Below are positions 26,111 through 63,513 of a stretch of 63,513 bases of DNA, one piece after another. Origin of the DNA: a virus (lineage: Duplodnaviria; Caudoviricetes); the IMG/VR virus record IMGVR_UViG_3300021964_006691, positions 1 to 63,513 of that record; one strand, written 5' to 3'. Both the position numbers and the translations under genes were made by a program. Positions within the stretch are counted from its first letter, which is position 1. The number at the start of each line of letters is the position of its first letter. The notes beneath the pieces were generated by a model. The model was not told the DNA's origin, did not search any database, and saw nothing but the letters and a program-made list of their open reading frames with translations.

Positions 26111-26155
26111 TGACTTTTAAAAAAACTAATCAATAAATAGTTGCTGTAATAAAAG

Positions 26156-26231
26156 GCTGGTATAGCTCAGTAGGTAGAGCAACTGATTTGTAATCAGTAG
26201 GTCGTCAGTTCGAACCCGACTACCAGCACCA
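26156..26231 (+). tRNA. tRNA-Thr(UGU)
   Basis: Cloverleaf; anticodon arm ACTGA-TTTGTAA-TCAGT; GTTCGAA T-loop; encoded CCA. Confidence 0.95.
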
Positions 26232-26463: not shown

Positions 26464-26539
26464 GGGGCGGTAGCTCAGTTGGGAGAGCGCCTGGTTTGCA
26501 ACCAGGAGGTCGGAGGTTCGATCCCTCTTCGCTCCACCA
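26464..26539 (+). tRNA. tRNA-Ala(UGC)
   Basis: GGGGCG...; anticodon arm CCTGG-TTTGCAA-CCAGG; GTTCGAT; ends CTCCACCA. Confidence 0.95.
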
Positions 26540-34243: not shown

Positions 34244-34318
34244 GCCGCATTCGTCTAGTGGTTAGGACACCGGGTTTTCATCTCGGCAACAGGAGTTCGA
34301 TTCTCCTATGCGGTGCCA
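34244..34318 (+). tRNA. tRNA-Glu(UUC)
   Basis: GCCGCAT/ATGCGGT acceptor stem; CCGGG-TTTTCAT-CTCGG; GTTCGATT; CCA. Confidence 0.95.
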
Positions 34319-53373: not shown

Positions 53374-55326
53374 ATGCTATTTGGTATACTCACATTAATC
53401 ACAGCACTTGCTATTGCAGGTGTGGCCGCCTGGTTCAGTATCGCTGGACTTATGATATTCTTTGGCGGAATGCCAATGAGTGTAGCCATTATGGCTGGTA
53501 CATTAGAAGTAGGTAAACTACTTACAGCAAGTTGGCTTTACAGATACTGGAACGAAACATCAATACTACTCAAGACATATCTGACCACAGCAGTTGTAGT
53601 TCTGATGGTTATAACATCTGCAGGTATATATGGTTACCTGTCTAAGGCCGCCAGTGATGTATCTAGTGACGGTGCTGTAGCCTTTGCAGAAGTAGAACGT
53701 GTTGACGGACTTATTCTCAGAGAAGAAAATAAGATTGCCATTATAGAGGATAGGATAATAAGTGTAGGTGGTAGTGTTGATGTAAGTGAAAGTATTGAAC
53801 AACAGGAAACTATCAGAGATGGTGCATGGCAAAGAGTACAAGGTGATATAGATTATGCACAAGGACAAATAGACAGACTCAGAGACCAACTCGCAGTATT
53901 AGATAAAGCAGTAAACGATCTAAGAAACAAAGGTGTAGAAGTTGTTGTAACAGATGAGGGTGGTATATTCCAGGGAGATACCACAGAAAAGATAGACTAT
54001 GTTGCACAGGCAAACGACTTATACAACCAACAAGAACAGCAACGTGCAGATATCAAAACAGATATAGACAAGCAACAAGCAAATATAGATGCATACCGAC
54101 TACAAGCACAAGATACAATTAACGGTGCTAATGCAGAAATAAACAGACTTAGGAACACTAGTTCCAATCAGCAAGATGCAAACATTGAAAAGATAAATGC
54201 TTTTAACACTGATATAGACGCAATTTACGACAATATCGCAGTACTTAAAGACAGTAAATTTGAAGCAGAAAGCAAAGTAAGAGATTTAGAAAGAGAAATA
54301 GGCCCAATCAAATATGTAGCAGAGCTTCTTTATGGTAGTTCAGACCAATCTGTTATGGACAAAGCAGTAAGAATATTCATACTGTTATTTGTTTTTGTAT
54401 TTGACCCTTTAGCAATTATGTTATTGATTGCGGCTAACCAGACATTACTTAGGTACGGTATTAATTTAGAAAGCACAGGACCAAAAGAACCGCCAAGAGA
54501 CCCAGAAGGTGATCCAGGAAGTTTTTGGGATAGTGACTTTGAAGAACAAAGCAGAGAAATATATGGCGACAATATGCCAGACCTTCCTAGTGCGGCAGAA
54601 GATGCCGCAAAGGCAATGGCCGAATCGGCTTCCGAAAAAAAAAGAACGGAAAAATTAAAAAAGGCCTTGTCGTTATTGGAAACAAAATACAAAAAAACAT
54701 TAAAAGCTCTTGACGATAAGCCTAAAGAAGTTATAATAGAAAAAGAAGTCGAGAAGATAGTAGAAGTTCCGGTTGAAGTAATTAAAGAAGTGGTAGTTGA
54801 AAGGGAGGTGCCAGTTGAAAAGATCGTTGAGGTTGAAGTCGCAAAAGAGGTTGAGGTCATCAAGGAGGTTGAACGAATTGTCGAAAAGGAAGTTCCAGGA
54901 CCAGAAAGAATTGTCGAAGTCCCAGGACCAGAAAGAATTGTCGAAGTCCCAGGACCAGAAAGAGTCGTCAGAGTTGAGTCCTCAGAAGGAGTAAAAAGGT
55001 TAAATAAAGAAATAGAAACATTACAAAACGAATTGCAAATATTAAGATCTAAAAAACCTGAGACTATAGAAAAAATAGTTGAAGTCGAAAAAGAAGTTCC
55101 AGTCGAAGTCGAAAGGCCAGCATCAGGTGATTTAAAAGACGCCGCACGGTTAATGGCAACTAGTGAATTAAATAAAGAAGATTTATCTGAAGCACAGATA
55201 TTAGAATTGTTACAAAAGTCTTCTGAAGAAGAAGTAAAACGTAAACTGGGCTTTTGGGCAGTATCATTACCTAAAACAGATGTAGTTAAAGAGCCCACTA
55301 ATAAAAAATACATAGGTAAAAAATGA
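53374..55326 (+). CDS. Membrane-anchored coiled-coil protein with V/E/K/P repeats
   Basis: N-terminal TMs ([18 protein letters not shown]), coiled coil, [16 protein letters not shown], then IVEVP repeats. Confidence 0.8.
54889..54969 (+). repeat. 27-nt tandem repeat x3 (EVPGPERIV)
   Basis: GAAGT(T/C)CCAGGACCAGAAAGA(ATT/GTC)GTC. Confidence 0.9.
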
Positions 55327-56615
55327 GCGAAGATAAATCATTAACCTGTAATTTTTGTGGTAAAAAACGTGAAGAGGTAGAAAAACTAATCGCTGGACCT
55401 GGTGTTTATATATGTGATGAGTGTGTTCAACTAAGTTATGGTATTGTATCCCAAGAAGACGATCATGATTTTGGTAACTTAGATTTTGATAATCTCCCAA
55501 GACCGTCTGAAATAAAAAAATTCTTAGATCAGTATATTATGGGCCAAGACTCAGCAAAAGAAATATTGTCTGTAAATGCCTATAATCATTATAAACGCAT
55601 AACTAATATCATACAAGATGTAGAACTAGATAAGTCAAATGTGTTATTACTAGGACCTACAGGCACAGGTAAAACACTACTTGCAAAAACATTGGCCAAG
55701 AAACTTCAGGTGCCTTTTGCAATAGCAGATGCAACTACACTAACTGAAGCAGGTTATGTGGGAGAAGATGTAGAAAGTGTACTAGAACGTTTGCTAATAT
55801 TATCTGATTTTGATATAGAGTTAGCCCAAAGAGGTGTTGTTTTTATAGATGAGTTAGATAAAAAAGCTCGTAAGTCAGAAAACAATACAGCAACAAGAGA
55901 TGTGTCAGGTGAGGGTGTGCAACAAGCATTACTAAGACTCATAGAAGGCACAAATTGTAAGATTAAAATGAACGCAAAAGCAAAGTATGGTGATGATTTT
56001 ATCGAGTTTGACACATCAAATGTATTGTTTATATTAGGTGGAGCATTTGTAGGCATAGAAGAAATTATAGAAAAACGATTAAAGAGTAAAAGTAAAATAG
56101 GTTTTAACAGTAAGATACTAAGTGATACAGACAAAAATCAATTACTCACAAAGATTAATGCACAAGACATTGTTACATACGGTTTAATACCTGAGCTGGT
56201 AGGTAGGTTACCACTAATAGCAACTATGGATAATCTATCTAAAGATCAATTAGTAAATATATTGACAGAAGTTAAAAATAGTATTATAATACAGGTTAAG
56301 TCTTTATTAAAACTAGACAATTTAGAGATTAAATTTTCTAAAAACTATTATGAACAGGTATCTGTGTTAGCAGTAGAGTCTAAAATGGGTGCCAGAGCAT
56401 TAAAAAGTTTAGTAGAGAACAGTTTAATAAACATTATGTTTAGGATAGAGGATTTCAATAAAACAGGTGTACAAGCCATTAGATTTGATAACTATCCAGA
56501 CAGAGGAAATAAACCAATATTAGTATTTAACGATAGAGAAGAAGTAGATACTAATTATAAATTATACAGAGGAATAGATGAGTTGGAAAAACAACGATCA
56601 CAAAAAGAACTTTAA
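55323..56615 (+). CDS. clpX: ClpX ATP-dependent unfoldase
   Basis: CNFC...ICDEC zinc domain; GPTGTGKT; [16 protein letters not shown]; [13 protein letters not shown]; IGF loop. Confidence 0.96.
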
Positions 56616-62068: not shown

Positions 62069-62569
62069 ATGAAAATACAAAACTATACACAAGACGGATT
62101 TGAGAAGGTTTGCGATGTTATTATACATCCTGACAGAGAAGACCAATGGTCATATGAAAATGTAAACAGAAAATATGTTGGTGATGACCATACAAGTTGG
62201 TTATACTTTATTGTTAAAAACGATGATATAATGAAGTGTGGCGAGTCAGGAAATCCTTTATTACTACAAACTTCTAACAGTGACAAGAAGAATCCAGTAT
62301 GGAAAAAAGGTACATTCAGTAGACTAGGCAGGTATATGAATGGCGACACAACTGATGTTGTAATACGTGAAGCTCTATTTGAAGATGTAAGAACAGGTAC
62401 AGTTAGCATTTGGGCTAAAAAATGTAAGATCACAAAAGTTAAAGTAGACATTATGGGCGAAGCACATTTTGTAGAGAGAACATCACACAAAGATATGGAA
62501 ATGCTATATCTGGACCATTTTGTAACAGAATATGGTAGTTTGCCGCCATTAAATAAGGGCAGAAAGTAG
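62069..62569 (+). CDS. Hypothetical protein, possibly divergent GIY-YIG-like nuclease
   Basis: LYFIV....MKCGES...RL..Y...E...L....G.LPPLN. Confidence 0.5.
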   Translation: MKIQNYTQDGFEKVCDVIIHPDREDQWSYENVNRKYVGDDHTSWLYFIVKNDDIMKCGESGNPLLLQTSNSDKKNPVWKKGTFSRLGRYMNGDTTDVVIREALFEDVRTGTVSIWAKKCKITKVKVDIMGEAHFVERTSHKDMEMLYLDHFVTEYGSLPPLNKGRK

Positions 62570-62609
62570 AAAAAAGATAAATAACTTTGCAATAAAGAAG
62601 AGCAAGGGC

Positions 62610-63001
62610 AAAAGGATCGTAAGTGAATGGAGTCTACTGCAAATCCAAATTGCATGTAGAGTCAATGGAGATGATACACAAGGTAAGTGAATCGTAAGAA
62701 ACACAAACCGAATGGTAACAAGGAAGTAGACCTACATTATGTATTAGGGGGTTGGCAACAACTCGGTAATACAGGAAGATTAAATCTTCAAAAGAGCACG
62801 GGCTATTGCTATATGGAAATAGTCTTCAAAAGTGCTCGGATTTATTCATCCAAGTTTAGAATGATGCTTAGGCATTATCTATTTGGGGTATCCAACAAAG
62901 GACTGAGAATGGCAACACTCGAAGTAACCAAGAAGTATACCAAGTAGGATAGAGGAACAGGACACACACTAACGAATGCTCCTCTACCCCGCGATCTTTT
63001 T
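62610..63001 (+). ncRNA. Candidate large structured non-coding RNA (~390 nt)
   Basis: Late promoter 62576; 11-bp closing helix AAAAGGATCGT/GCGATCTTTTT; at least 7 internal hairpins. Confidence 0.6.
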
Positions 63002-63043
63002 ATTCGCCAATAGGGTTTAAAAAGAACTAGTAAAATAAATTAA

Positions 63044-63071
63044 CTTGCTTTTTAAAGGAGATAATATCATG
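63044..63071 (+). promoter_or_regulatory. ROSE-like RNA thermometer hairpin
   Basis: CTTGCT pairs with SD AGGAG with a bulged G, upstream of hsp20. Confidence 0.55.
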
Positions 63072-63513
63072 GTAAGCAAACAATTTCGTATCACTTCTGA
63101 TACACTAAACCCACTATATAGAGCCACAGTCGGATTTGACAGACTATTCAATGAGTTCGAAACTCAAATGAATTCTGCAACAAATTCACAAGGCTATCCA
63201 CCATACAACATCAGTAAAGACGGTGATGATCTGTATTCAATTACATTGGCTATTGCAGGATTTAAAAAGTCCGAAATAGATATTGAGTTGGAAGACGGCA
63301 ACTTACTTATTACTGGTACCATTAAACCTGATGAGTCCGGATATATGGATGACATCGAGTTTTTACATAAAGGTATTGCAGAGAGAGACTTTGTAAGAAG
63401 TTTTAAACTTGCTGAGTATGTGGAGGTTAAGAGTGCAAAATTAGAAGACGGTCTTCTAAAAGTCGAACTATTCAGAAATGTTCCTGACGCACTTAAACCA
63501 CAAAAAATCAAAG
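63069..63513 (+). CDS. ibpA: Small heat-shock protein Hsp20/IbpA (runs off window end; missing from ORF track)
   Basis: LYRATVGFDRLF, YPPYNI, LAIAGF, FLHKGIAERDF.RSF.LAEYVEV..A.LEDGLL. Confidence 0.95.
   Translation, partial: MVSKQFRITSDTLNPLYRATVGFDRLFNEFETQMNSATNSQGYPPYNISKDGDDLYSITLAIAGFKKSEIDIELEDGNLLITGTIKPDESGYMDDIEFLHKGIAERDFVRSFKLAEYVEVKSAKLEDGLLKVELFRNVPDALKPQKIK

Follow-up and report, generated by a model that had tools for sequence, protein, structure and literature searches.

What fills the gap in front of the hsp20 gene in a phage genome that is otherwise packed with genes? The window analysed here is the whole 63,513-nucleotide (nt) stretch of the IMG/VR viral contig IMGVR_UViG_3300021964_006691 (63.5 kb), in which 499 bp separate ORF166, an open reading frame (ORF) at 62069-62569, from the hsp20 ATG at 63069. 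A first-pass annotation based on the letters of the window had noticed this gap, which is real, and proposed that it encodes a large ornate non-coding RNA driven by a phage late promoter. Our comparison of homologous sequences confirms that positions 62576-62994 of the plus strand represent the gene cassette of a non-coding, strongly structured RNA that belongs to an uncatalogued family. The sequence comparison reported below documents how this RNA folds, on which strand and within which boundaries it lies, how it is distributed and that it is non-coding. It places the RNA in a modular, highly structured family carried by uncultured giant phages of marine origin that have T4-type late-promoter motifs.

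Core, periphery and edges of the RNA

The core of the RNA (62880-62994) comprises 26 base pairs that were evaluated against shuffles and slid partners as controls. Its first element is arm C (62885-62946), whose covariation was assessed in 97 distinct sequences. Helix C1 (62887-62891 with 62937-62941) is paired in 100% of them with three to five pair types per position, and the helices C2 (62900-62901 with 62928-62929) and C3 (62902-62910 with 62917-62925) are together 78.9% paired with double changes at all 11 of 11 pairs. The arm is capped by a hexaloop (GGCAAC at 62911-62916 in the window, GGYAAC in the family), and its junctions CCAACAAA and AAGAAG are conserved. This most conserved arm of the RNA (62887-62941) had been missed in the first-pass annotation, which did recognize part of the second core element. 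Hairpin D (62947-62989) extends the reported TAGAGGA/TCCTCTA helix to a stem of ten pairs (62947-62956 with 62980-62989) that is 89.2% paired and shows double changes at all ten positions. It presents a nearly invariant loop of 23 nt (62957-62979). A search for pseudoknots in the core by mutual information provided only lineage-linked signals and one extra pair within the D loop, 62958/62978, which is C-G in 90 cases and U-A in 7.

The statistical support of the core was obtained from two alignments. In a MAFFT-only seed of 49 sequences 85.5% of the cells are paired compared with 69.9% in the shuffles, none of which was as high in 500 trials, and 20 of the 26 pairs exhibit changes on both sides. 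In the covariance-model alignment of 100 loci 86.9% of the cells are paired (58.5% in shuffles) and all 26 pairs show double changes; its covariation score is 0.689 versus 0.196, and slid partners reach 31-43%. The slid controls of the seed were 24-46% paired, which is also the range across the tests of the core, arm A and module B, and in each of these tests none of the 500 shuffles matched the observed percentage of pairing or the covariation score. With the MAFFT alignment of 102 sequences RNAalifold recovered hairpin D alone, since arm C was out of register there; the covariance model cured this. The folding energy points in the same direction. Region 62590-63010 of the plus strand folds with -113.3 kcal/mol compared with -88.6 +/- 5.4 kcal/mol in shuffled sequences (z -4.62; 0 of 100 as good), and the fold of 62589-62994 amounts to -96.6 kcal/mol if it is constrained to the supported helices versus -104.3 kcal/mol without constraint.

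The periphery of the core is optional, and domains A and B are gained or lost in their entirety among the homologues. Every hairpin listed in the first-pass annotation is present in the window sequence, and the homologues document that helices are kept by compensatory changes; the individual proposals fared differently. Arm A1 (62602-62640) forms a helix of 62602-62609 with 62632-62640 that is 98.6% paired in 52 sequences, with double changes at four of seven pairs, an invariant G.U pair at 62606/62635 (52 of 52) and the apical loop UC[GUAA]G at 62617-62623. The previously suggested hairpin 62633-62660 competes with and excludes A1 and is not supported as conserved, being only 63.9% paired; its 3' half lies in a variable linker (62641-62671) whose length differs among homologues. 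Arm A2 (62672-62720) has helices between 62672-62688 and 62703-62720 that are 93.7% and 98.1% paired, six pairs with double changes, a loop-closing pair that is C-G in 49 and G-C in 3 sequences, and the apical sequence UC[GUAA]GA at 62692-62699. Arm A as a whole (62601-62721, 52 sequences) is 93.2% paired compared with 85.2% in the shuffles. The sequence GTAAGTGAAT, which had been reported to occur twice, is located at 62619 and 62683. Arm A2 is followed by a lineage-specific insertion (62721-62773) with an occupancy of 10-60% in 98 homologues. The GCAA-capped hairpin therein (62741-62772) is shared by the close relative L004 alone, which retains it by compensation (GUUG/CAAC versus ACUA/UAGU), and the helix is confirmed as specific to this lineage.

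Module B (62774-62851) is a long irregular hairpin that was tested in 30 sequences (62771-62856; 86.4% paired versus 78.4% in shuffles). Its basal helix B0 (62774-62787 with 62838-62851) is 76% paired with double changes at nine of 14 pairs. The annotated GAGCAC/GTGCTC helix, designated B2 (62794-62799 with 62832-62837), is 98.9% paired with two covarying pairs, and B3 (62800-62804 with 62821-62825), to which the GGGCT../..AGTCT helix corresponds, is 100% paired. The G.U pairs at 62800/62825 and 62787/62838 are invariant. Two UCAAAA bulges at 62788-62793 and 62826-62831 face each other from opposite strands, so that the unit CU-UCAAAA-GWGCWC-GG occurs twice with a two-fold pseudo-symmetry. Two further annotated helices, GAAGAT/ATCTTC (87% paired, one double-change pair) and GGAT/ATCC (73% paired, two double-change pairs), are present but overlap the better-covarying B0; covariation neither supports nor rejects them because both are nearly invariant. 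The adjacent variable arm (62852-62884) contains the predicted hairpin 62857-62881 in the window, and judged by eye it is found with insertions in only about half of the homologues.

Two additional pairings were considered and rejected. The RNAalifold proposal of UUGC with GCGA at the 5' end is 86.7% paired and shows A.C and C.A without compensation where it varies, and a contact of the 3' tail with UCGU of arm A is 94.5% paired but changes on one side only. Rearrangements of the periphery were observed in individual loci: the A1 motif is tandemly duplicated in L036/L006, and in L040 and L066 a GCAA-capped hairpin is inserted within the loop of arm A2, between AUCG and GUAAG. Domains are gained here through insertion at loops. 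CsrA-like ACA(R)GGA words were also seen by eye, and GGA is not clearly enriched according to a rough estimate.

The 5' edge of the cassette is marked by the annotated late motif GATAAATA at the start of the gap (62576-62583), an TATAAATA-like word that closely precedes genes, as in T4-type late promoters. The window contains 25 copies of the pattern [TG]ATAAATA with a strong enrichment ahead of genes, as 13 copies are located at most 60 nt upstream of an ORF on the same strand, in zones that represent 6% and 1.9% of the positions on the two strands; the total ATAAATA count (37 versus 40.5 expected) is not above chance. Among 106 distinct upstream flanks of 650 nt from the homologues, 105 contain TAAATA, and in 96 it is followed by a TTGCA-like word, which in the window corresponds to the conserved TTTGCA at 62586-62591. 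We infer that GATAAATA is used as a promoter, and on the T4 spacing between promoter and start the transcript would presumably begin near 62589. The T4-like late-promoter word is quoted as TATAAAT in PMC9004378. Neither a sigma-70-like promoter nor an intrinsic terminator was predicted on the plus strand between 62300 and 63300. The single flank without TAAATA within 650 nt (L139) is G+C-rich, unlike the others, and may stem from a chimeric contig. Two other loci, L039 and L041, exhibit a sigma-70-like promoter (TTGATT, spacer, TATAAT) about 40 nt upstream of the RNA and ahead of the late-promoter word, and transcription of these copies in the early as well as the late phase is conceivable.

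The 3' edge is formed by the tail CGCGA (62990-62994) with the RCGA word. Ten distinct loci allowed us to pinpoint this boundary, as their sequence switches 2 nt past RCGA, behind GCGAAC, to the terminal part of a phoH gene in convergent orientation. This sharp edge places the end of the unit at 62994 and not at 63001, the position given in the first-pass annotation.

Distribution in marine giant phages

An hsp20-based search of viral contigs yielded 32 loci, and 20 of them harbor the gap sequence upstream of hsp20 according to blastn and nhmmer, with differing genes further upstream. Pattern scans with two variants of the hairpin-D loop contributed 10 + 10 viral stretches and 116 metagenome stretches, whose contig names, such as TARA, are indicative of ocean samples. 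Altogether 99 distinct full elements could be delimited, which range from 186 to 619 nt with 98 of 99 below 600 nt. Searched with the covariance model of the core, 100 of 100 sources (746 kb) contain a single copy each, as does the window. Outside this set, neither the entire gap nor the core had a blastn match among 50,697 phage records, and the exact 19-mer of the D loop has 0 matches in 185,579 species genomes. A degenerate pattern of arm C matched nine times in the same genomes, none of which was confirmed by the covariance model; the best of them (13.5 bits, E 0.46) lies in a putative coding sequence and is unconfirmed as a copy. No publication describing this RNA was encountered in our literature searches.

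The size of the source phages can be estimated from the completeness of two records. The window is rated 18% complete and the relative G001, the record of locus L009, comprises 339,794 bp with 91% completeness, which is indicative of giant phages with genomes of about 350 kb. G001 is also instructive with respect to the RNA itself. It contains an hsp20 with 66% identity but no RNA core anywhere in the genome, and GATAAATA is located directly ahead of its hsp20 leader hairpins. The RNA is accordingly an accessory of this phage group.

The downstream context was scored in those 108 distinct loci whose downstream sequence extends over 300 nt or more. The RNA is followed by hsp20 in 98 of them. 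The other ten (L057, L069, L075, L087, L094, L111, L112, L146, L156, L165) exhibit a convergent gene in place of hsp20, which was identified in L111 as PhoH (PF02562, E 2.1e-65), and the phoH stop codon lies within about 10 nt of the RNA. All ten copies keep the promoter word, and they differ from each other by compensatory changes in stem D. Any read-through from the RNA in these loci would be antisense to phoH.

Proposed function of the RNA and competing explanations

To our knowledge, large non-coding RNA classes with elaborate folds are few in bacteria and phages, and each of them has raised the question of what RNA can do without protein. For the present family we favor, on balance and with modest confidence, an autonomous RNA that has a function of its own and in most cases shares a transcript with hsp20, because the RNA persists under structural constraint without hsp20, and hsp20 with its leader exists without the RNA. 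The plus strand would be transcribed from the ATAAATA motif with a start near 62589. The product would consist of an invariant core, i.e., arm C, hairpin D presenting the unpaired 23-nt loop and the RCGA tail, surrounded by the optional GUAA-capped arms A1 and A2, module B and insertion hairpins that vary between lineages. In most genomes the transcript would continue through a short ROSE-like leader of two hairpins into hsp20, and the late hsp20 mRNA would carry the RNA at its 5' end. The plus strand shows no promoter-like or terminator-like site between the RNA and hsp20, in line with such a co-transcription. The RNA would not be a sensor that controls hsp20; it would act on its own account as a folded RNA or ribonucleoprotein particle that engages a partner through its conserved loop and its A-rich bulges, possibly a protein, a different RNA or additional copies of itself. 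The invariant 23-nt loop, the three GNRA-type loops and the symmetric A-rich bulges are the likely working surfaces.

Several points weigh against this interpretation and its foundation. The covariance-model alignment is fitted to the structure and leans toward it, but the MAFFT-only seed agrees with it on the structure of the core. The metagenome set was gathered with an exact 19-mer of the D loop, and the invariance of this loop is therefore partly due to ascertainment in that set; the loop is also conserved, in two variants, among the loci reached through hsp20 alone. The totals of G.U and A.C pairs in the core are equal (57 versus 58), so that the strand call rests on excluding two mismatch-prone positions, which harbor the A.C cases (47 G.U versus 14 A.C elsewhere), and on composition: the mismatches comprise 247 purine-purine versus 19 pyrimidine-pyrimidine combinations, and the unpaired columns contain 43% A and 13% U. 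Finally, hsp20 starts 93-111 nt past the D-loop motif in 98 of 108 distinct loci and this linkage stays while the upstream genes vary, which would also fit a role in cis.

The near-constant linkage is the reason to keep a second-ranked explanation alive, namely that the RNA is a long cis-acting 5' leader of hsp20, be it riboswitch-like, thermosensing, stabilising or processing, that sets the amount of late Hsp20. The RNA is adjacent to and co-oriented with hsp20 at a fixed spacing in the loci mentioned above, no promoter-like or terminator-like site is found between the two on the plus strand, and the conserved core of about 115 nt with its conserved junctions has the size of an aptamer. We nevertheless consider a leader function less likely. 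The ten loci without a co-oriented downstream gene keep the fold by compensatory changes, hsp20 with the same proximal leader exists without the RNA, and entire domains come and go. The only candidate for a switch helix, the end-to-end stem 62610/62991 of the first-pass annotation, did not survive the comparison: at least 9 of its 10 pairs are formed in only 9 of 39 distinct combinations, without any compensation, and its T-run is part of a hairpin in the hsp20 leader that covaries.

This leader (62995-63068) is located outside the RNA family. Its hairpin E (62995-63025) covaries and folds with -8.4 kcal/mol (z -3.25), and UUGCU at 63045-63049 faces the Shine-Dalgarno (SD) sequence AGGAG at 63056-63060. 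All 89 of 89 distinct flanks on the hsp20 side exhibit the arrangement of UUGCU before the SD; the leader lies just upstream of hsp20 also in L007, L024, L027 and L028, and relatives without the large RNA carry it as well. The defining trait of ROSE-like thermometers is described as U(U/C)GCU opposite the SD within the 3'-proximal hairpin, and short two-hairpin forms are known (PMC3669281); ROSE elements are reported to always accompany small heat-shock genes (PMC4166951). The phage leader shares the two hairpins and the UUGCU opposite the SD and is thus ROSE-like by motif and position. The designation refers to the architecture only because the Rfam models, ROSE included, do not match 62995-63068. 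At 37 C the SD hairpin is predicted to have hardly any stability (-0.6 kcal/mol). The likeness is restricted to the leader, whereas the 400-nt RNA lacks an SD-masking part and also occurs without hsp20. ROSE-motif leaders on phage hsp20 genes are a side finding of the current study.

The autonomous function that we prefer can be phrased more specifically, and the resulting proposal is still more tentative than the cis-acting leader. The RNA would be a new class of large phage RNA with its own activity, either as an RNA-only higher-order assembly built on the three GNRA-type loops and the two-fold symmetric UCAAAA module or as a decoy that captures a host factor late in infection with its invariant 23-nt loop, and it would be made deliberately together with Hsp20.

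The first-pass annotation had left open whether the RNA represents a new class or a divergent member of a known one, and had excluded RNase P RNA and transfer-messenger RNA (tmRNA). The latter exclusion is corroborated by Rfam and ARAGORN, and our data speak for a new structured family and not for a divergent GOLLD or ROOL. A descent from GOLLD, ROOL, group I or II introns, RNase P RNA or tmRNA is very improbable. At the gathering score Rfam 15 detects only three tRNAs elsewhere in the window, two chance-level matches (E 3.8 and 7.3) are all that is found in 62400-63200 with E up to 10, and 15 homologous loci (52.7 kb) have 0 matches with E up to 0.1. ARAGORN predicted 0 tRNA or tmRNA genes in 62300-63200. 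The similarity with ROOL and GOLLD is a general one: they share a length of hundreds of nt, many helices, conserved loops and A-rich linkers, and they are phage-borne RNAs of unknown function, as is the case here. ROOL and GOLLD have sizes of about 580 and 800 nt and lie near tRNA genes. With 186-619 nt among its 99 distinct elements, the present RNA is of smaller size and built from modules. It goes together with hsp20 and a late-promoter motif, differs in hosts and habitat with its origin from marine giant phages, and matches no Rfam model in sequence or structure. Its size, A-rich linkers, GNRA loops and phage setting do resemble the ornate phage RNAs, for which elaborate RNA-only assemblies have been reported (ROOL and GOLLD; bioRxiv 10.1101/2024.12.08.627333). 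A comparable survey of IMG/VR data based on covariation in viral intergenic regions listed 8,495 candidate structured RNAs (Fremin et al. 2023; PMC10690425). Those candidates are shorter (29-151 nt) and the main text of that study refers neither to hsp20 nor to heat shock, but fragments of the present RNA may be among them.

An equally improbable alternative is a DNA-level element, such as an origin or a packaging or recombination site, whose hairpins form in DNA. The minus strand of 62590-63010 folds nearly as well (z -4.31), and fold energy alone therefore does not give the strand; the equal totals of G.U and A.C pairs would also be compatible with this alternative. It is contradicted by the invariant G.U pairs on the plus strand, by the strong purine/pyrimidine asymmetry of mismatches and loops, by GNRA-type loops on the plus strand only, which is also the strand of promoter motif and hsp20, and by the promoter motif that is always located at the same end. 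A small protein encoded by the 86-amino-acid ORF 62687-62947 can practically be dismissed, as this ORF is open in the window but has no Pfam match and is not conserved, with a stop codon breaking the frame in 39 of 51 homologues around the core, a median longest ORF of 49 amino acids in 98 elements, and compensatory substitutions in the helices. The outcomes that the first-pass annotation had named as refuting its proposal, a conserved reading frame and a fold no better than shuffles, did not occur.

The family is abundant in ocean metagenomes and combines a core of about 115 nt and exceptionally clean covariation with optional plug-in domains. Abundance, compactness and covariation make it a good subject for structure determination and for the question of which advantage giant marine phages draw from such RNAs.

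Phage setting and neighboring genes

The hsp20 gene (63069-63513; PF00011, E 1.7e-15) is located on the plus strand and runs off the window. The nearest Hsp20 proteins of cultured phages, those of Methylophilales phage Melnitz and Pelagibacter myophages, are only 43% identical. On the other side of the gap, ORF166 lacks a Pfam match, and its use as a query for relatives of the locus retrieved none. The window furthermore encodes a ribonucleotide reductase, a DNA ligase, a subtilase and a ClpX-like ATPase with zinc finger and AAA domain (55323-56615). The presence of ClpX-like ATPase and Hsp20 in one phage suggests a phage control of protein quality, and together with the late-promoter motif the two genes hint at a link between the RNA and this control. 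The three tRNA genes of the window are located at 26133-26228, 26464-26536 and 34244-34315, and the late-promoter word ATAAATA is found 17 nt ahead of the first one.
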